This document shows positions 1,172 to 17,232 of a stretch of 23,502 nt of DNA, piece after piece. Made by a program: the position numbers and the translations under genes. The notes beneath the pieces were generated by a model. That model was not told where the DNA came from, did no database searches, and saw nothing but the letters and a program-made list of their open reading frames with translations. This DNA is from a virus: the UHGV virus genome UHGV-0080740; one strand, written 5' to 3'. Numbering within the stretch: the first letter of the stretch is position 1; each line of letters begins with the position of its first letter.

Positions 1172-4100
1172 GTGGTGTTTTTTATTCCTGATGTTTTTTT
1201 GTTGTGGTTTCAGAACGGTGAGATTCGGGGCCCGCGCGTTAGCGTGGGAGGTGCTCCTGTTCTTGGTACTGATGGCACTCCAGTTATGCGCGATGCCCTA
1301 AAACTGGCAGATGAAGCCACTATCACGGCGCGGATGAACGCGATCCCGCACTCAAATTACCGTGCAGTCGTGTTTACCAAAGAACAATACGCCCGCATTC
1401 CGCTACGTGATGACACCGTAGATGAGCATGCACAGGATATGCTTTATGACTTCGTTGCCGCCGGGCGCGTAGCCAGCGCAATGGACTCCGACTCCCACCG
1501 CAAAGAGGCCGCGCGTCGCCGGGTATTGTCGGAGTATTCAGATACCGGTACCGAAAAAGCAGAGAAGTATCCGTACTTTGAGGATATGGGCTTCGATAGT
1601 GTGATCGCTGACGAAGGTCACAACTACCGCAATAGCTATAAAAATGGTCGCGAAGCGTCACAACTGGCCTATCTGCCCACCAGCGCGGTGGCGCAATCGG
1701 CGCGGGATATGGCAATTAAAAACGCGTACCTGATGAAAAAGAATGGTGGGCGCGGACCGGTTCTCCTGACTGCAACGCCAGTCGTTAACACCCCGATCGA
1801 TGCATACAACATGCTTTCTCATGTGCTGCCGAAGGAATACTGGCAGAAGATGGGGATCTACGGTCCTGATGACTTCGTTAAATTCTTCGGCAAGACCAGG
1901 CTGGAAACGGTACAGAAAATCAGCGGTGAAGTTGAAGAAAAAATGGCGCTGGTGGGCTTTGAAAACCTTGATGCGCTGCGCGGCATATTCCATCGCTGGA
2001 CAACGCTTAAAACGGCGGAAGACGTTAAGGATACCGTGGAGATCCCGGAACTGGACGAACACCAGCAGGATGCACCACTTACTGAAGAACAACTGGCGGC
2101 GTATGAAGAATTACGCCAGCAGGCGGAAGCGGTGGCCAAAGCCAACAATGGCGTAACGACCTCGGTCGATGAAGACGGAGTGATTGAGCACGAGAAAGCC
2201 CGTCCGATCTTCTCAATAATCAGGGATATGGACCGCGTATGTACTGACATGGACCTGTACTATCGCCGGATCACCTATCGTTTCCTGCCGGAGTACGCCG
2301 ATGCGGTGCAGCAGCTGGCGGACAGTTTGCCTAAACAAGCCACCAGCGAAGACGACGACAGTGATGATTCAATCACGCAGCAATCGCAATACTCCCTGAT
2401 AGATAAGGGCGAGTTTATTCAGTTGCAGGTTCCGGAAGCGTTCGAGCAGGAAGTGAATAAGCGCCTGGCCAGGTTTGGCATTGACGAACAGACCGTAACT
2501 CACCCCGTTACGCCCAAATACGCGAAGCTGATTGCCACGCTGAAGGAGTTTTTCCCGGAAGGGAAGCAAATCATCTTCACCGACGAAAAAACGCAGCACC
2601 AGAAGCTCAAGCGCATTATCTGCAATGTTCTTAACCTTGAACCTTCAATGGTAGGGATCCTGAATGCTCAGACGGTTGCCGAGGCAGGTAAAACCGGTAA
2701 GAAACTGAAAGCGGTTAAACCGCCGAAAGAGTTACCGGATGAACCAACAGATGCACAGATAGCGAAATACAACGAGCAAATGGCTCTGTATGACGCCTAT
2801 ATCGCGCAGCAAAATGAAATGTCGTTGGGCGGTCTGGAAAAGATTGCAGCCGACTTCCAGGAGGGCCGGACTCCGATCATTATCTGCAACAAAAAGGCAG
2901 AGGTGGGTATCAACCTGCATCGAGGAACGACTGACATCCATCATCTGACGTTGCCATGGACACCAGCCAGTGTCGCACAGCGTAACGGTCGCGGTGCCCG
3001 AGTTGGCTCCAACCGTGCAAGCGTTCGCGTTCATTACTACTGCGGCAAGGGTTCTTTCGATGAATACCGACTGAAGACGCTGAAGCGTAAAGCAGGCTGG
3101 ATCTCCGATATCCTCCGTTCAGATAAGTCAGAAATGGAGAACGCCGACGCCAACGATATGATCGAAATGCAGATGTATACCGCTAAGGATGATGGCGAAC
3201 GTCTGGCAATGATGCAGGTTCAAATGGATAAGGCGAAAGCCGCGCAACGCGCCCGCCAGAAAGAACAGGCCGCTATCGACCTTCAGAACTACATCAAGGC
3301 GCAACATGCAGCTGGCGAGGATGTTGCGGCTCTTACCGCTGAATTAGAGCGAAGTAAAGCGGAACTTGAAAAGACCACCGCCGAGGTAGCTAAATTCAAA
3401 CAGGCGGTAATGGCCAAAGCAGCTGATAATGCAGGCTGGAAGGCCCGCTGGGGTAGCGTCCATCACACAGACCGTACGTTGTTAGCACATTATCGCGCGT
3501 CGTTGAAAAGCGCCATTCAGCGCAAGGCTAATATCACTCAAGCCATCTCCCGCTATGAGAAATTATTGAACCGTACTCAGAAGGCCGCGACGGATATCAA
3601 ACGCCTGCGCCCGCTGGTGGAGGATGCAATAAATAAAGGCATTCTGGATGTTGATCCTGATCTGGTTAACCATGCGAATGAGTTCCTTGTTATCGGCGAT
3701 CGCTCATGGCGTGTAGGCCAATACTACGATTGTGCCGGTGATATCGTTCGCATTAAGTCGCTGGACTTCGACAGCCAGCGCGCAGACGTGGAGATCATCT
3801 TTACCTTCAAAGGCACCAAATCGGGTAACTGGGATGTGAAGACGCTGGATAAACAGGTGGATGTAACTCCCGATGAAGATGCTGTTATGCAGAAAATCAG
3901 TGGTGGCGTCTCCATCGCCGGGATTAACGACATCATTTCCTGTGACGATTTCTACCGTTTCCAGCAGCGCGGCATGATCAAAATCACTGACTCATACGGC
4001 GTTCAGACTACAGAGTCAGGCTATAGCATTGATTTTGTTGGTACCTATACGGACCCACTGAAGCATGCGGTTTACCCGGATCGCCGTGACGGCGCGCTGA

Positions 4101-5224
4101 AGTCGTCAATTGCAAAATGGGTGCTTGGTATGATGTCGGAAGGGAATAACCGCCAGGTCCGTTTGGCAGAAGTATTCCTGACTGAACTGTTTGGCTCCAA
4201 TTATGGCGAAGTAATCGCGTCATACGGAGATACGCTATCCCCTGAAGCAATTCAGGAGAAAATAGCGGATGCGATCGCCAGAATGCCGGAGAAAACAAGC
4301 CAGGGGGCTACTCGTAACGGGGATTCTGAACTTGAGGTCACCAATGCCATTTTCGGTACCCATGAGTTCCGGGCGTCAGATTATGAGATCACCACAGCAC
4401 AGTTTGGCACCATTGGCATTTACAGCAATAAAGACGAGATCAAGCAGGCAATGGACGCTGCAAGCGCGCGTATTGCAGCAGAACGGAAAGCCAATCTGAA
4501 TCATGCAGTCGCCGCGCTGACTCAATCGTGGGTAACAGCAATCAGGGAGGCCGCCACCACAGGGAAAATCACACCGGCAATTGCGGATGTCGTAAACGAC
4601 GGCTCTAAATTTATGGATGCCTATCAAATGGATGCGGTGCAGTTGCCATCAGCCTATGGGCAACTCAGCTATCGCATGACCTACAACCTGGTATCAATGT
4701 TTTCCGACCTTGCCATCCTTGGGCTGGTGGACCTTAACGAGGTTACGCCGGAATTGCTTAGCATGCGCAAGAATCATGTTGAGATATTGCAGAGAATTAA
4801 CACGGTTCTTGCCGGGCGCACCGATGAAGAGAAACAGGCCGACGCTGATCGGATAAACCTGGCCCTAGGCAACATCACGGAGGAAGAAATTGCCGCCAGA
4901 AACGAGAAACAAGAAGAGTTATCATCAATACAGGGTGATGCCACCAGCATAGCTCAGTCTCTTGGTCTGAATTATCGCGTATCCACCGCCGACCTGAAGA
5001 TGATGTACGCACCAAAATTCGCAGCTGGTGAGGTATTTGGGCTTCAGGAGGCGTCCGGCATGAAAGGCGTTCTTTTCCGTGCTAAAGACGCAATCAAGGA
5101 AAAATTCGGCGCTCGCTGGCTGCCAGCGAAGGCGAAGAACAGCGATTTCCCGGGCAACTGGTGGATTATCGAGACAAAACACAACGTGGCGGACGTTCTG
5201 GCCGTCATCCAACAATACGCATAA
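1172..5224 (+). CDS. darB: SF2 helicase-domain protein, DarB-like, apparently 5'-truncated (1350 aa from GTG)
   Basis: Helicase motifs II (IADEGH), III (TATPVVN) and VI (QRNGRGARVG) present, no Walker A upstream; in-frame TGA at 1145-1147; position upstream of ulx/lxc-like genes fits P1 darB (about 2255 aa, recalled). Confidence 0.6.
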   Translation: MVFFIPDVFLLWFQNGEIRGPRVSVGGAPVLGTDGTPVMRDALKLADEATITARMNAIPHSNYRAVVFTKEQYARIPLRDDTVDEHAQDMLYDFVAAGRVASAMDSDSHRKEAARRRVLSEYSDTGTEKAEKYPYFEDMGFDSVIADEGHNYRNSYKNGREASQLAYLPTSAVAQSARDMAIKNAYLMKKNGGRGPVLLTATPVVNTPIDAYNMLSHVLPKEYWQKMGIYGPDDFVKFFGKTRLETVQKISGEVEEKMALVGFENLDALRGIFHRWTTLKTAEDVKDTVEIPELDEHQQDAPLTEEQLAAYEELRQQAEAVAKANNGVTTSVDEDGVIEHEKARPIFSIIRDMDRVCTDMDLYYRRITYRFLPEYADAVQQLADSLPKQATSEDDDSDDSITQQSQYSLIDKGEFIQLQVPEAFEQEVNKRLARFGIDEQTVTHPVTPKYAKLIATLKEFFPEGKQIIFTDEKTQHQKLKRIICNVLNLEPSMVGILNAQTVAEAGKTGKKLKAVKPPKELPDEPTDAQIAKYNEQMALYDAYIAQQNEMSLGGLEKIAADFQEGRTPIIICNKKAEVGINLHRGTTDIHHLTLPWTPASVAQRNGRGARVGSNRASVRVHYYCGKGSFDEYRLKTLKRKAGWISDILRSDKSEMENADANDMIEMQMYTAKDDGERLAMMQVQMDKAKAAQRARQKEQAAIDLQNYIKAQHAAGEDVAALTAELERSKAELEKTTAEVAKFKQAVMAKAADNAGWKARWGSVHHTDRTLLAHYRASLKSAIQRKANITQAISRYEKLLNRTQKAATDIKRLRPLVEDAINKGILDVDPDLVNHANEFLVIGDRSWRVGQYYDCAGDIVRIKSLDFDSQRADVEIIFTFKGTKSGNWDVKTLDKQVDVTPDEDAVMQKISGGVSIAGINDIISCDDFYRFQQRGMIKITDSYGVQTTESGYSIDFVGTYTDPLKHAVYPDRRDGALKSSIAKWVLGMMSEGNNRQVRLAEVFLTELFGSNYGEVIASYGDTLSPEAIQEKIADAIARMPEKTSQGATRNGDSELEVTNAIFGTHEFRASDYEITTAQFGTIGIYSNKDEIKQAMDAASARIAAERKANLNHAVAALTQSWVTAIREAATTGKITPAIADVVNDGSKFMDAYQMDAVQLPSAYGQLSYRMTYNLVSMFSDLAILGLVDLNEVTPELLSMRKNHVEILQRINTVLAGRTDEEKQADADRINLALGNITEEEIAARNEKQEELSSIQGDATSIAQSLGLNYRVSTADLKMMYAPKFAAGEVFGLQEASGMKGVLFRAKDAIKEKFGARWLPAKAKNSDFPGNWWIIETKHNVADVLAVIQQYA

Positions 5225-6937: not shown

Positions 6938-7627
6938 ATGGAAGTTATCTACATAGTAGAACCAATCATTTCCACAAGCACTAACAAGTTGATAGCAGTG
7001 GAAGTGTTGAGCAGATTTTATTCCAACGAGGGGGCTATTCTTTCTACTCAGAAAGTATTAGGTATGTTTACAAGCAAGATGAAGATTAACTTGCTAAAAT
7101 CTCAACTTAACACAATAATCAAATATAAGTATTTTTTTGAATGCCATAATATATTATGCTCTATCAATGTAGATTATGATACCTGTTTATATATATATGG
7201 CAATAAACAAATTCAAGAACTACTAATAAACAATAAATTTATAGCGATTGAGATATCAGAAAACTATCCTGATTTAAGCGATGAGGATTACATCATATCC
7301 TTTCTACTGACTTTGACAGATAATGTTTGGCTTGATGATTTTGGAAGTGGTAACGCCACCATGAAAGCATTAATTAAAAATAAATATCATGCAATAAAAC
7401 TTGATAAGTCATTTTTTCAAGAGCATATGATTAAGCCTCATTTTGATGTCATTATTAGCAATTTAAAAAAGTTATGTCCGAATATCATCGCTGAAGGCGT
7501 CGAAAACATTGATTGTCATAAGTTATCAAAAGGGATAGGGCTATGGGGCACTCAGGGATATTTTTTCCCATCAATTCCGCTGACGGAGATTGAGTCCATA
7601 GATAGTAAGTGGCTATCAGATTTATGA
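6938..7627 (+). CDS. stand-alone EAL-domain protein, YdiV-like, 229 aa
   Basis: EAL signatures in order: EVLSR (EAL variant), EISE, DDFGSGNATMKAL, KLDKSF, EGVE, QGYFF; no sensor or GGDEF domain; strong SD GGGTGGGAG. Confidence 0.8.
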   Translation: MEVIYIVEPIISTSTNKLIAVEVLSRFYSNEGAILSTQKVLGMFTSKMKINLLKSQLNTIIKYKYFFECHNILCSINVDYDTCLYIYGNKQIQELLINNKFIAIEISENYPDLSDEDYIISFLLTLTDNVWLDDFGSGNATMKALIKNKYHAIKLDKSFFQEHMIKPHFDVIISNLKKLCPNIIAEGVENIDCHKLSKGIGLWGTQGYFFPSIPLTEIESIDSKWLSDL

Positions 7628-11676: not shown

Positions 11677-12528
11677 ATGATAAATTATGTCTACGGCGAA
11701 CAACTGTACCAGGAGTTCGTCAGCTTCAGGGATCTCTTTCTAAAAAAAGCTGTTGCACGCGCCCAACACGTTGATGCCGCCAGCGACGGTCGTCCTGTTC
11801 GCCCGGTTGTCGTTCTGCCGTTCAAAGAAACGGACAGCATTCAGGCTGAAATTGATAAATGGACTTTAATGGCGCGGGAACTGGAACAGTACCCAGACCT
11901 CAATATCCCAAAGACTATTTTATATCCAGTGCCTAACATCCTTCGCGGTGTACGTAAGGTTACAACTTATCAGACAGAAGCTGTGAACAGCGTCAACATG
12001 ACCGCTGGCCGCATTATTCATCTGATTGATAAGGATATTCGCATCCAAAAAAGCGCGGGGTTCAATGAGCACAGTGCGAAATACATAGAGAACCTGGAAG
12101 CAACAAAAGAGCTAATGAAGCAGTACCCGGAGGATGAAAAATTCCGTATGCGCGTACACGGCTTTAGCGAAACAATGCTGCGCGTCCACTACATTTCCAG
12201 TAGCCCTAACTACAATGATGGTAAATCAGTTAGTTACCATGTGCCACTGTGTGGCGTGTTTATCTGCGATGAAACCCTCCGTGATGGAATCATCATCAAC
12301 GGTGAATTCGAGAAAGCAAAATTTAGCCTTTATGACTCCATAGAACCGATCATCTGCGACCGCTGGCCGCAGGCAAAAATATATCGCCTGGCAGATATTG
12401 AAAATGTAAAAAAACAAATTGCCATCACTCGCGAAGAGAAAAAGGTCAAATCAGCCGCATCAGTTACGCGCAGTCGTAAAACTAAGAAGGGGCAGCCAGT
12501 AAACGACAACCCCGAAAGCGCGCAATAA
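11677..12528 (+). CDS. c1: C1 repressor of lysis, 283 aa
   Basis: MINYVYGEQLYQEFVSFRDLFLKKAVARAQ... recognised as P1 C1; SD GGAGG. Confidence 0.95.
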   Translation: MINYVYGEQLYQEFVSFRDLFLKKAVARAQHVDAASDGRPVRPVVVLPFKETDSIQAEIDKWTLMARELEQYPDLNIPKTILYPVPNILRGVRKVTTYQTEAVNSVNMTAGRIIHLIDKDIRIQKSAGFNEHSAKYIENLEATKELMKQYPEDEKFRMRVHGFSETMLRVHYISSSPNYNDGKSVSYHVPLCGVFICDETLRDGIIINGEFEKAKFSLYDSIEPIICDRWPQAKIYRLADIENVKKQIAITREEKKVKSAASVTRSRKTKKGQPVNDNPESAQ

Positions 12529-12531
12529 ATT

Positions 12532-12553
12532 ATGCCCGGCATCAACCGGGCAT
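12532..12553. terminator. hairpin terminator between convergent c1 and antirepressor-like gene
   Basis: atgcccgg-catcaa-ccgggcat, A/T-rich flanks on both sides. Confidence 0.5.
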
Positions 12554-12560
12554 TCTTCCA

Positions 12561-13706
12561 TTATTCAGCCGCCACCGGTTTTAACAAGCCAGCATCGAGC
12601 AGTTTACGCGTCAACCACTGTTGTCCTTTCCCCGTTAATTGGGGCGTCAGCCGTATCTGGTAGCCATCTTCATCATCCAGCACCACTTCTTTCACTGTGA
12701 AATATCCGGCGTTTATGTACTGCTGGAACGGCACATTTTTACGCCCGCCGGACGCTATCAGAATGCCGTTCTCCCGTAACCAGGCAAACAGCGCGTTTTG
12801 CTTCAGCCCAACAACCTTTGCAAAATTACCAATCAGGATCCCCTTAGCCACTGATACACGGTCGGCAAAATCGACCTTGGGGGCTGCGGCCACCAGTTGT
12901 TGATTTAGCTGGTGGGCCTTCTGTTCCAGTAGCTGCTTTTGTTCAGCCAGCTCGGCAGCCAGGCGCAAGGCTTCAGGTAGTGTTTGGGGGATTGCGACCG
13001 GTTGCTGTTCTTTTTGCCGGAAGTAGCTGTCTTCCAGTTTTTCAAAGAATGCCCATGCTTCATCTGTGTTTACGATCTTAGACATGCGTGCCGCTCCGCG
13101 TTCGGCCCAAAGAATTACCTGGCTTGTATATTTGCTAACCAGGTGACTAGTAGTCACCAGCCTTTTAAATTCCTTTAATTTTGAACCAGTTAAGAGATAG
13201 TAATGCTTACCTTCTTCAAAGCGATCGGAGTTGCGAGACAAATTTTTACGAATATTAGCTTCATCGGTTCCATACCCCTTAGCAAGAGTTTCGGTCGTTA
13301 CTACACGCACTCCCAGCCATTCCAGAACGGGAATTTCATCAGACTGATTCTGAACAACCACCAGCTCTGATTCCTGAACTGAAGTTGCATGAATTTTTTC
13401 TGATTTAACGTTAGTTGCTTTCATTCTGTGTGCCTCCTTGCGTGCTTCGGCTGCGACGGTTGCGTAATTCAGATGACCCTGTTCGAGCAGGTATTCACGG
13501 ATATCGGTCACAGCGATAGCCTTTAAGCGCAGATAAACATCGCGCTTATCGACATCCAGATGCGGGTATTCCTTTTCAAGAATTGCTGCGAGTTCTTTCG
13601 CTGATAGAAGAGATTTAGTGCGGATCATGTAATCCGCAATCTCGTACGATGTTATTCGTGAGTGATTTATTTCCATGAAGTGGCGTCCCTGCCAGTTAAG
13701 TAACAT
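12561..13706 (-). CDS. antirepressor-like protein with KilA-N/ORF6N-type and KilAC (ANT) domains, 371-381 aa
   Basis: Central segment VRVVTTETLAKGYGTDEANIRKNLSRNSDRFEEGKHYYLLTG fits ORF6N/KilA-N; C-terminus GILIGNFAKVVGLKQNALFAWLRENGIL...NVPFQQYINAGYFTV fits KilAC; alternative start at 13676. Confidence 0.7.
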   Translation of the reverse strand: MLLNWQGRHFMEINHSRITSYEIADYMIRTKSLLSAKELAAILEKEYPHLDVDKRDVYLRLKAIAVTDIREYLLEQGHLNYATVAAEARKEAHRMKATNVKSEKIHATSVQESELVVVQNQSDEIPVLEWLGVRVVTTETLAKGYGTDEANIRKNLSRNSDRFEEGKHYYLLTGSKLKEFKRLVTTSHLVSKYTSQVILWAERGAARMSKIVNTDEAWAFFEKLEDSYFRQKEQQPVAIPQTLPEALRLAAELAEQKQLLEQKAHQLNQQLVAAAPKVDFADRVSVAKGILIGNFAKVVGLKQNALFAWLRENGILIASGGRKNVPFQQYINAGYFTVKEVVLDDEDGYQIRLTPQLTGKGQQWLTRKLLDAGLLKPVAAE

Positions 13707-13776
13707 CCTGTCACCTACTGATTAGCCCATGTCAACTAATCAACGTCGAATATAATACCCTCGATTAAAGAAATAG

Positions 13777-13793
13777 CAATACATTAGAGCAAT
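13777..13793 (-). promoter_or_regulatory. C1 operator upstream of the antirepressor-like gene
   Basis: - strand ATTGCTCTAATGTATTG followed by TATTAT -10-like. Confidence 0.6.
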
Positions 13794-13794
13794 T

Positions 13795-14841
13795 TTATCT
13801 AACGCTCGACGAATGACTTGTGATAGCGCCGACTCCAAGCGCGTAATCAAAGAACAATCGTTGATGCATCGCCAGCCTACCGTGCGTCTTCTCCCAATTA
13901 TCGCGGTCACGCTCAATATCACGCTGGCATGACTGGCACAGAGGAATAGCATAAATGTCATGCGCGCATAATCGACTATAACGAACGATATAAGGCGTAA
14001 TGTGAGCGCCAGCTCCCGCCGCTCCACACCCACAGCATGGACGGGAAGCAACAAAGTCCATGTACTCAGGTAATTTTAGCGATTGCAGTTTTGGTATTTT
14101 GAAATGCGCCATACCTGGGTCGGAGTCAACATCCACAGGGCATACTTTTGCACGCATCGGCGCGGCGCGTTCTTCCATCATCTGAACATATGCTGTAGCG
14201 CGATCGTCATACGGGCGAATATCCGCCTCTTTCAGTGGTCCGCTATCCTGCGGAGTAGCCTTCATCTTATTTATTATTGATATGCGGCAGACTTCTTCCG
14301 GCATCAGGTGCATCATGTTGCGCATGAAAGCCCACCAGCACAGCTCCTGAATACTTAAATCATGGCTATTTGAAAGGCCCATTTCCTGACGGGCGACATC
14401 CAGTATCCAGTTAACGCGATTATTGTGCAGCGTTTCTTTCAGCTCATTAAAACCACGCATCCGGTAATGGTTATCGTGATGCCAGCACAACAACACCGCG
14501 CTATTGTCTCGTTCAGCGTGGACAATATGGTTGTCACACCAACTACGATCTGCGGCCTGGCATTGACCCTCTTTCCTACGCAACCACGCCACCAGCGCGT
14601 CAATTCCACCAATACGGCGAAACAGTTCATCGCTGTTAAAAAACGGCTGCAACGCCTCATTTGTTGCCATGGTTTGCTCGGTAACAACGAGGCCGTCTTC
14701 CATGTGCTCGATTAACTCACGCGGCACCGGCTCCATAATAAATTTACGGCCAGCCTCCACCAGCTTTCTGACCTCCTGATCCACTTTGAACGTGGCGAGG
14801 CCAAGCTCTTTCTGTACAAAGGGAGTAATTACGGCTTTCAC
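13795..14841 (-). CDS. hypothetical protein, 348 aa, with C-terminal Cys/His cluster
   Basis: GTG start with SD AAAGG; C-terminus PCCGCG...HITPY...[15 protein letters not shown] resembles a zinc/HNH-like module; possibly pdcB-position gene. Confidence 0.6.
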
Positions 14842-15052: not shown

Positions 15053-15433
15053 CTACTCCGCAGAACCATACAATCTACGTAACGTGGCGGCGACAGAAGA
15101 TACAGATATCTCGCCAGTCGCAGCGCCTACAGTAAGGTCTGCCAGTTCAGGTGAATCAAATACCTGCACCCCGTTACGGCGTAGAAATAGCAGCGCACTG
15201 TTTAGCGCGGTACGCTTATTGGCATCATTGAATATATGCCCTCTCGCTGTAGCCACCAGGTAGGTGGCGGAGACTTCGAAAAGGTCGGTGATCTCTTCGT
15301 AGGCAACTCTGGCCTGAACTCTCCCGATAATGGCCTCTGCCCTACCCGGATCTGACATTCCCGGCAGGCCGCCGTAGCGGTTTATATTCGCATCATGAAG
15401 CGCAATAAGTTCTTCCGGTGATATATGCCTCAT
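15053..15433 (-). CDS. doc: Doc toxin (Fic-fold kinase), 126 aa
   Basis: [40 protein letters not shown]... recognised as P1 Doc; TAATG overlap with phd. Confidence 0.95.
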
Positions 15434-15654
15434 TATCGGTTAACCAGTTCCTTGTTGGTGGAGTCCAGGGTGTCAAACAGGGATGCAAATTCAGCATCCA
15501 GCGCCGCTTTTTTGTAGGCTTCGAAAGTAGCCTTGCTGACAATTACTGCTGGCTCACGGCCTCTTCGGGTGATTTCAACCTCTTCCCCGGCTTCAACATT
15601 GTTGAGCACTTCAGAAAGGTTGCCGCGCGCGGTACGGAAGTTAATGGATTGCAT
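15433..15654 (-). CDS. phd: Phd antitoxin, 73 aa
   Basis: [73 protein letters not shown]; SD AGGTG 3 nt upstream. Confidence 0.95.
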
Positions 15655-15660
15655 AAACAC

Positions 15661-15726: not shown

Positions 15727-16116
15727 TTAAATCACCGGACAATCATCAAATTCCCCACTTCGGGCATCATTAATGACATGAGTGATCACACCAAACACAG
15801 CATTACTCCCCGTGCATCCATCGTCATCCACTGGTAACGCCTCTTTCTTCCCGGTGCTTAAATCCTCCAGGTGCTGGCGCGGATACTTTCGGTATCTCTT
15901 TATGCGATATTCACCCTCCATAGCGCACACAAGCAGCGAACCATCAACTGGAGTAAGCGAAGAATCAACCACCAGCAAAGCACCCTGCAATATTCCCTCA
16001 CGGTGATGGCTATCAGCTGCCCGCATGAAGTAGGTTGCTGATGGATGTCTAATTATCTGCTGATCAAGAGAAATTCGGCTTTCAACATAATCCGCCGCAG
16101 GAGAAGGGAAACCCAT
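15727..16116 (-). CDS. humD: HumD, UmuD'-like S24 peptidase-family protein, 129 aa
   Basis: Begins MGFPSPAADYVESRISLDQ... (UmuD-like lacking the N-terminal pro-segment); LexA box upstream. Confidence 0.9.
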   Translation of the reverse strand: MGFPSPAADYVESRISLDQQIIRHPSATYFMRAADSHHREGILQGALLVVDSSLTPVDGSLLVCAMEGEYRIKRYRKYPRQHLEDLSTGKKEALPVDDDGCTGSNAVFGVITHVINDARSGEFDDCPVI

Positions 16117-16134: not shown

Positions 16135-16154
16135 TACTGTTTATCTATACAGCA
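16135..16154. promoter_or_regulatory. LexA box (SOS operator)
   Basis: TACTGTTTATCTATACAGCA = CTGT-N8-ACAG; 21 nt upstream of humD ATG and about 140 nt upstream of divergent + strand ORF. Confidence 0.8.
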
Positions 16155-16290
16155 TACATTAAAGAAGCACCTTTGGTGCAAACGCGTTATGTACATCAAC
16201 CACCGCTGATGATTTTTGTGCGCTTTGCTACTATTCATCACCGCGGGATCAGCGTAACCTCGTTGCCAATCAGTTAATAAGGAATTAGCT

Positions 16291-16875
16291 ATGCCTAATC
16301 GCATTCCTCTCGATCCTGTATTGCCCAAAAATTTTGACTGCACTCCTAACGAGAAACGCTCTAAAGCTCAGCTGGACGCCTAGTGGGACCATCCATATGG
16401 GGTTACACAACCTGACGGGAAAATTGTAGTTTATTGTCTGAATGGTGGGGCGTGGGACCGTCCATCCGTGCTTTGTTTGGCAGATAACTATGATGAAGCC
16501 TGTGAACTTGCCGAAAGACAGCAGGCAAGCTGGGTAAAAACACGGTCTGAACCGACATTCATGTTTTCAAAAGAACCGCCATTTATACTGGCGAGGATGC
16601 CGCAGCGACCGGATCATCAACAAGAAATTGTTGCTGAATTTTCCTCAAGGGATGAGATGAATCTCTTCTCATTAAAGCAGGAAGAAAGGGATCGCGTCGA
16701 AGTGTCTCCAACTCTCGACCACAACCGGATGAACCTGGCCCAGCTCGCCTGGTACAGCAAAGAATTAGAGATGTCTATTGCCCGGCTTGAAAACGAAAAA
16801 GCCGCTATCCAAGTCCAGCACGAAGTAGTTCTGAACCGGATTAGAGAAATGCAAAACGATAACAGGGGATTTTGA
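16291..16875 (+). pseudogene. LexA-proximal ORF (lxr position) interrupted by in-frame amber at codon 31
   Basis: ATG 16291 with SD AAGGA 7 nt upstream, in frame with the 135-aa track ORF (16468-16875); single TAG at 16381-16383. Confidence 0.5.
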
Positions 16876-17232
16876 ATGGCTAAAATCGAGTACCATCGCG
16901 ATCGCGGTAATTACCTGGAAATATACGATCATGAATCTCTTAACGATATCAACGATGCGTTATATGAATACTGTGAAAAAACGAGCATCACAGATGCACC
17001 TGATGCATTTGTCGAGCTGCCGGTATATCTCCGCGACATCTATGCAATACGAACACCGCCCGTATCGGTGATTCACATTGGCTATGTCCGCCTGTCCATC
17101 GAAGAAGATGAAGATCGTTATATCGTGCGCCACTATACATTGGACAGAAAAGAACTTCCTAATGAATGGAACATGAGTAATTTCTACAACGGTGAATATG
17201 GCTTAAAATCCGCTAATAATTTACGGTCATAA
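16876..17232 (+). CDS. hypothetical protein, 118 aa
   Basis: ATG overlaps preceding stop (TGAATG), translational coupling; no recognisable domain. Confidence 0.55.
   Translation: MAKIEYHRDRGNYLEIYDHESLNDINDALYEYCEKTSITDAPDAFVELPVYLRDIYAIRTPPVSVIHIGYVRLSIEEDEDRYIVRHYTLDRKELPNEWNMSNFYNGEYGLKSANNLRS

Follow-up and report, generated by a model that had tools for sequence, protein, structure and literature searches.

Layout of the locus and identity of the interrupted gene

The window analysed here, i.e. the whole 23,502-nt stretch of DNA of the virus genome UHGV-0080740, contains doc, phd and humD on one strand and, divergent from humD across a predicted LexA box, an interrupted open reading frame that is followed by a homolog of upf93.6 (Table 1). 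The interrupted frame is opened by an ATG (16291-16293), which is preceded at a spacing of 7 nt by the Shine-Dalgarno motif AAGGA (16279-16283). Up to position 16875 its sole interruption is an amber codon, TAG at 16381-16383, which forms codon 31 of the frame. The GTG at 16468 is in frame with this ATG, 59 codons on, and the stop codon of the frame directly abuts the ATG of upf93.6 (TGAATG). The coordinates, the Shine-Dalgarno motif, the start codon, the in-frame TAG and the 135-aa ORF, all reported in a preliminary description of this DNA, hold when the sequence is checked.

Table 1. Features of the humD-lxr region, with positions given in the window.
Feature	Position	Strand or site	Remarks
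doc	15053-15433	- strand	
phd	15433-15660	- strand	
humD, intact	15727-16116	- strand	UmuD'-like S24 peptidase; annotated as humD in P7 and P1
Predicted LexA box core, CTGTTTATCTATACAG	16137-16152	humD-lxr intergenic	CTGT-N8-ACAG; 14/16 vs consensus core
Native ribosome-binding site (AAGGA) and ATG start of lxr	16279-16293	+ strand	start shared with P7 upf94.2 and P1 lxr
Truncated lxr product	16291-16383	+ strand	30 codons, then amber
Mutated Dcm site	16379-16383		CCTGG to CCTAG; G>A at 16382, Trp31 TGG to TAG
Direct repeat copy 1, GTGGGACCATCCAT	16383-16396	+ strand	WDHP motif
Direct repeat copy 2, GTGGGACCGTCCAT	16452-16465	+ strand	WDRP motif; contains Trp55
Residual lxr, open 135-codon frame	16468 (GTG)-16875 (TGA)	+ strand	codons 60-194
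upf93.6 homolog	16876-17232	+ strand	118 aa; phrog_5797

The predicted LexA box corresponds to a LexA protein_bind feature that is annotated in both P1 and P7. Going by the P1 annotation, lxr would be under LexA control, of which the operator sequence alone is visible here; a simple scan found no sigma-70-like promoter for lxr. Position 16153 is C in the window, in the identical TAG loci L003 and L027 and in L014, and T in all other haplotypes, including the sub-lineage that carries a TGA in addition to the TAG (see below). Hereby, the C turns the flank of the LexA box from the consensus CAGTA into CAGCA.

The 1.2 kb around the site show 98.7% DNA identity to P7 and, over the first 726 nt, 95.3% identity to P1. 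In P7 (upf94.2, AAQ07574.1; 585 nt, 194 aa) as well as in P1 (lxr, YP_006568.1, "LexA regulated function"; 573 nt, 190 aa) the same ATG and the same Shine-Dalgarno motif open one annotated gene, whose position, divergent from humD across the LexA box and near phd/doc, is that seen in the window. Unlike P1 and P7, which both have TGG at codon 31, the window has TAG, so that it encodes a 30-residue peptide only and an intact frame for the ~190-aa protein is absent. This is the sole difference from P7 within the first 250 nt of the alignment, and the conceptual translation departs from P7 Upf94.2 only at codon 31 and at one residue near the C-terminus. P7 Upf94.2, to which this conceptual translation is thus near-identical, matches phrog_6164 over 194/194 positions (E = 3.5e-135). 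The 3' end of the window's gene and the gene downstream of it are of the P7 type (upf93.6), not of the P1 type (hot). Across related loci the lxr 3' end (16860-16880 in the window) is a mosaic junction with three C-terminal/downstream types: the P1-type end, ..REVQNG and stop, precedes hot, which is encoded on the other strand, the P7-type end, ..NDNRGF and stop, abuts upf93.6, and a third type ends in ..NDNRG and stop.

A single base, the one within the TGG codon, separates the window from the IMG/VR locus L022 over 520 nt of the ORF, and by this comparison L022 represents the immediate intact parent haplotype of the window allele. The suggestion that the two open frames are one interrupted coding sequence is therefore borne out: the P1 and P7 orthologs, with which comparison had been proposed, are single uninterrupted genes with Trp31, and no ortholog with two separate genes and a start of its own near 16468 or 16561 was seen. 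Judged by sequence, the locus is by descent an lxr ortholog, whose present state is that of a null allele or pseudogene.

Over its whole length the window is matched best by pMRE162 of E. coli MRE162 (99.9%). Between c1 (11677-12528) and pdcB (13795-14841) the window carries ~1 kb (12528-13800) in place of ~3 kb of P1, and pacA and pacB are missing altogether and lpa for the most part; a 381-aa ORF (12561-13706, - strand) lies at the P1 lpa position, with its start within the P1-alignable region. The element, like the 76.8-kb pMRE162, thus has the appearance of a P1-like plasmid that is defective and would be unable to activate late genes or to package DNA. Elsewhere in the window, a 1350-aa ORF starting from GTG spans 1172-5224, for which the pMRE162 annotation gives a 926-aa hypothetical protein, and a gene for an EAL-domain protein (6938-7627) represents cargo absent from P1.

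The amber codon replaces an invariant tryptophan

Homologs of Lxr were collected by a search of a protein collection, which returned full-length proteins in P1-like elements and many stand-alone relatives of 130-135 aa. The latter are encoded on plasmids and phage-plasmids of Salmonella, Klebsiella, Pseudomonas, Xanthomonas, Burkholderia and Bradyrhizobium (e.g. P0045, P0059, P0080), share 50-69% identity with Lxr over residues 1 to ~125 with invariant WWDHP and CLNGGAWDR motifs, and do not have the P1-type C-terminal helix. In the predicted structure of Lxr a separate long helix (residues 149-192) is joined via a low-confidence segment. An alignment of 18 sequences shows W31, W32, D33, P35, C49-L-N-G-G53, W55, D56 and R57 to be invariant; Trp31 is retained in 18/18 homologs from E. 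coli to Bradyrhizobium, down to ~50% identity. As Trp31 is invariant and lies in the most conserved motif, the amber codon replaces an invariant tryptophan of a conserved domain.

The likeness between the residues flanking the stop (A-stop-WDHP) and a later segment (AWDRP), which had been taken earlier as a sign of continuous coding sequence, is real. Both motifs are invariant in the family, and at the DNA level the likeness amounts to a 14-nt direct repeat, GTGGGACC[A/G]TCCAT, whose two copies (Table 1) show 13/14 identity at a spacing of 69 nt, which is beyond chance.

A sequence match of the stand-alone N-domain homologs was found neither in Pfam or NCBIfam nor in the PDB, and no LexA box was found upstream of them. 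Their neighbours vary, being a serine resolvase gene, a HEPN-Toprim gene or small plasmid genes. With contexts this heterogeneous, and with LexA boxes lacking, a function cannot be inferred from the neighbourhood. On the Pseudomonas/Xanthomonas-type plasmids L044-L047 (5788-7040) an ORF of 66-67 aa, the 135-aa Lxr homolog and an overlapping serine resolvase gene form a conserved three-gene row that is divergent from a VbhA/Fic toxin-antitoxin pair, and on Klebsiella phage-plasmids it is the HEPN-Toprim gene that adjoins the Lxr N-domain homolog.

The TAG allele is common in natural plasmids

The two alleles were counted by megablast with 55-nt probes that had the polymorphic base at their centre, so that the 28-nt seed has to include this base. 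Among PLSDB plasmids TAG was found in 30 (17 from E. coli, 11 from Salmonella and 2 from Shigella) and TGG in 154; among complete E. coli genomes, in each of which lxr is single-copy, the respective counts are 24 and 185. In IMG/VR, TAG occurs in 3/39 contigs. Exact protein look-up placed the 135-aa remnant on 310 contigs, an alternative call of 132 aa on 57 and the intact parent protein on 800. The allele is thus common in natural plasmids of E. coli, Salmonella and Shigella.

These counts also bear on whether the TAG merely reflects a mistake in sequencing or assembly, for which a check of the base call had been recommended. Errors of this kind are a general possibility, and the related record CP042641.1 looks error-ridden: the 1-nt indel in its lxr copy was discounted here as a probable assembly error, since the record has 49 annotated features in 95 kb and leaves humD uncalled. 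Against an error at 16382, the same base has been read independently in dozens of complete plasmids, which stem from three genera and from several countries, and the TAG allele has given rise to nested derived variants. We regard the probability of an error as negligible; at 16381-16383 the base call stands.

Origin of the stop codon at a Dcm site

In P7, P1 and L022 positions 16379-16383 read CCTGG, which is the ancestral pentamer and a Dcm site, one of only three in the lxr ORF. The G>A change affects the fourth base of CCTGG, opposite the inner C of the bottom-strand CCAGG, and deamination of this C yields exactly the Trp31 amber codon. Amber hotspots at Dcm sites in lacI were reportedly described by Coulondre, Miller, Farabaugh and Gilbert in 1978. 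As at those hotspots, a C:G to T:A change at the inner C of CC(A/T)GG creates an amber codon, and the same nucleotide has been hit in independent lineages; unlike in lacI, where the mutants belonged to a laboratory collection, the change is a polymorphism of natural populations and affects a gene of a phage-plasmid. Deamination of 5-methylcytosine at Dcm sites underlies the classical lacI amber hotspots and is countered by Vsr very-short-patch repair (PMC12606429, PMC2715241).

The recurrence of the mutation is apparent from the loci L062 and L063. Both have the same TAG as codon 31, but their haplotype departs from that of the window at 28/520 nt (~5%), and their backbone is a different one, in which parA adjoins humD. 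The differences closest to the mutated base are found 10 nt before and 13 nt after it. Since a conversion tract of less than 23 nt is implausible, the TAG must have arisen at least twice. In L035, according to a MAFFT alignment, the TAG is combined with an upstream haplotype that is recombinant.

The G>A signature is also seen at a second of the Dcm sites of lxr, where it forms a synonymous polymorphism (G447A). This polymorphism and the recurrence described above are both in keeping with a hotspot, the recurrence carrying the greater weight. Within the first 520 nt, deamination-type variants occupy 2/6 Dcm positions compared to 18/245 other G/C positions; this excess at Dcm positions (odds ratio 6.3, Fisher p = 0.07) is only suggestive. 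Based on the sequence context we infer that the mutation was Dcm-dependent, i.e. that the Dcm-methylated inner C of the bottom strand was deaminated from 5-methylcytosine to T and escaped very-short-patch repair, which would have produced the TAG.

Decay of the broken gene, and readthrough and restart as unlikely alternatives

Within the TAG-carrying plasmids further changes have accumulated. A nested sub-lineage that comprises 23 of the 30 TAG plasmids in PLSDB adds V38I, E131K and a change of Trp55 from TGG to TGA, i.e. a second, opal stop 24 codons past the TAG, and within the E131K lineage P0036 shows a 7-codon deletion. Of the other carriers, L014 adds V60M and L035 adds S24F and P104S. 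All six substitutions that followed the TAG (6/6) are non-synonymous or nonsense. Between intact lxr alleles of the P1 and P7 type dN/dS is 0.18-0.20. At a dN/dS of ~0.2 about 43% of changes are expected to be non-synonymous, so that 6/6 would have a probability of ~0.006, compared to ~0.18 under neutrality, an argument whose power is low with only ~6 mutations in the clade. This pattern indicates that the TAG allele behaves as a decaying pseudogene under what appears to be relaxed constraint.

The preliminary description had left three options for the stop codon, namely a natural amber allele, a pseudogene or a site of regulated readthrough. The first two are supported. Readthrough, by which a suppressor tRNA or the codon context would still yield full-length Lxr in a regulated or host-dependent manner, is in our view highly improbable. 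The start is good, the remaining frame is undamaged in the window, and laboratory supE hosts decode UAG as Gln, so that such hosts would read the codon. Contrary to what is expected of a readthrough site, the stop is derived and replaces an invariant Trp that is kept as TGG in 154 plasmids and 185 genomes, and the 23 plasmids of the sub-lineage also bear a TGA, which an amber suppressor cannot read. The window contains no tRNA genes, and no Rfam element was found. A stable downstream structure is lacking as well: compared with shuffled controls, the fold of the 100-nt stretch around the stop and beyond it is the less stable one (z = +1.4). The base that follows the TAG is U, which Poole et al. 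are said to have found in 1995 to be the most efficient context for termination in E. coli. The later substitutions, finally, point to relaxed constraint and thus speak against continued production of the full-length protein.

Somewhat more weight, though still little, can be given to a split gene, in which translation would restart at GTG 16468, at TTG 16477 or at an ATG (codon 91, 103 or 123) and produce an Lxr that has lost its N-terminal part but retains the P1-specific coiled-coil helix at the C-terminus as well as some activity. In line with this reading, none of the TAG carriers examined shows a stop within the 135-codon frame, the second stop (W55 to TGA) sits upstream of codon 60, an SD-like AAGGGA (-5.1 kcal/mol) precedes the ATG at codon 123, and the long helix 149-192 is predicted to be separate. 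In addition, GTG60 has become ATG in L014 (V60M), a single observation that hints at selection for C-terminal expression and may be due to chance. The initiation sites argue otherwise. Hereby, the Shine-Dalgarno pairing is weak at GTG60 (-3.9 kcal/mol), which lies 85 nt past the stop, and absent at TTG63 (+0.6 kcal/mol), whereas the native site is the strongest in-frame one (-6.2 kcal/mol); the start assigned by PGAP is itself inconsistent, being GTG60 in one record and TTG63 in another. Moreover, the invariant positions fall mostly within residues 1-59, so that a product restarted at codon 60 or later would be without most of them. P104S, E131K and the 7-codon deletion all lie inside the remnant, and an open frame is expected by chance, as a stop would result from only 77 of the 1755 single-base changes that are possible, and few mutations have occurred so far. 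The 135-aa downstream ORF is thus most likely a remnant and not an independent gene.

Recurrent loss of lxr

The W31 stop is one of several lesions in this 585-nt gene. Among elements that are >95% identical we found at least ten independent disruptions of lxr, with the W31 stop counted twice. A change of E112 to TAA is present in 6 IMG/VR loci and 5 PLSDB plasmids, including the pO111-type NC_013370.1, and its fragment occurs on at least 1000 contigs; E137 is changed to TAA in L008, and W55 to TGA in the TAG sub-lineage described above. Frameshifts follow codon 35 in L059-L061 and occur near codons 147 and 151 in P0137 and P0021, respectively. In P0038 the C-terminal part is replaced, in P0028 an in-frame deletion of 23 codons joins the two direct-repeat copies ("AWWDRPS"), and in L031 an IS3-family element truncates the gene. 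In the neighbouring genes of the same loci disruptions were found in 0/41 (humD), 0/34 (doc), 0/36 (phd) and 1/26 (upf93.6) cases, the last one being an internal stop in the IMG/VR locus L020. The families phrog_17145 and phrog_10721 match Lxr residues 1-111 and 123-193 exactly and end to end; they are probably the two fragments of the E112 to TAA allele, i.e. database artefacts of a pseudogene.

The number of lesions raises the question of whether lxr knockouts are common because inactivation is favoured in lysogens, e.g. due to an SOS-induced cost or to defence sensing. Positive selection for lxr loss is possible. The at least ten independent disruptions, the lack of any in humD, phd and doc with only one in upf93.6, and the frequency of the truncated forms (the E112 fragment occurs on at least 1000 contigs, the W31 remnant on 310) are all in its favour. 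The contig counts, however, mirror clonal expansion of host lineages and not independent events, and the data are accounted for by a mutational hotspot and relaxed selection, lxr being non-essential, with no need to invoke positive selection. Furthermore, the long-term dN/dS of ~0.2 and the 50-69% identity in distant genera argue that the protein is normally maintained. We thus consider adaptive loss unlikely, although it is the alternative to which we would give the most weight; somewhat less likely again is the fuller proposal that natural P1-like phage-plasmids repeatedly lose lxr adaptively, with SOS-induced Lxr being costly or exposing the lysogen to host defence. If adaptive loss were true, the conserved N-terminal domain of Lxr would have a function worth finding.

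That lxr is non-essential for lytic growth of P1 has been seen in a CRISPRi screen (PMC10695390), and the gene lies within a hypervariable region of P1-like phage-plasmids (PMC9603915). We infer that the amber allele persists because lxr is dispensable.

Conclusion

When these observations are taken together, the interval is best described, with a probability of about 85%, as the lxr gene of a P1/P7-like plasmid prophage that carries a natural loss-of-function nonsense allele. Ribosomes that start at ATG 16291 would halt after 30 residues, so that the conserved N-terminal domain would not be made, and the ~490 nt of untranslated mRNA that follow may reduce the expression of upf93.6 through lost coupling or Rho polarity. 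The hypothetical proteins of 135 aa and 132 aa that annotation pipelines call at this position (WP_001354543.1, WP_001648136.1) are most likely remnants of a broken lxr. As such the allele would be a natural instance of the textbook amber hotspot at a Dcm site, repeated in wild plasmids, and an ordinary nonsense allele of a dispensable accessory gene. The wider pattern, a gene that is conserved from E. coli to Bradyrhizobium and yet is often broken in P1-like elements, leaves the current understanding unchanged but may merit the attention of specialists.
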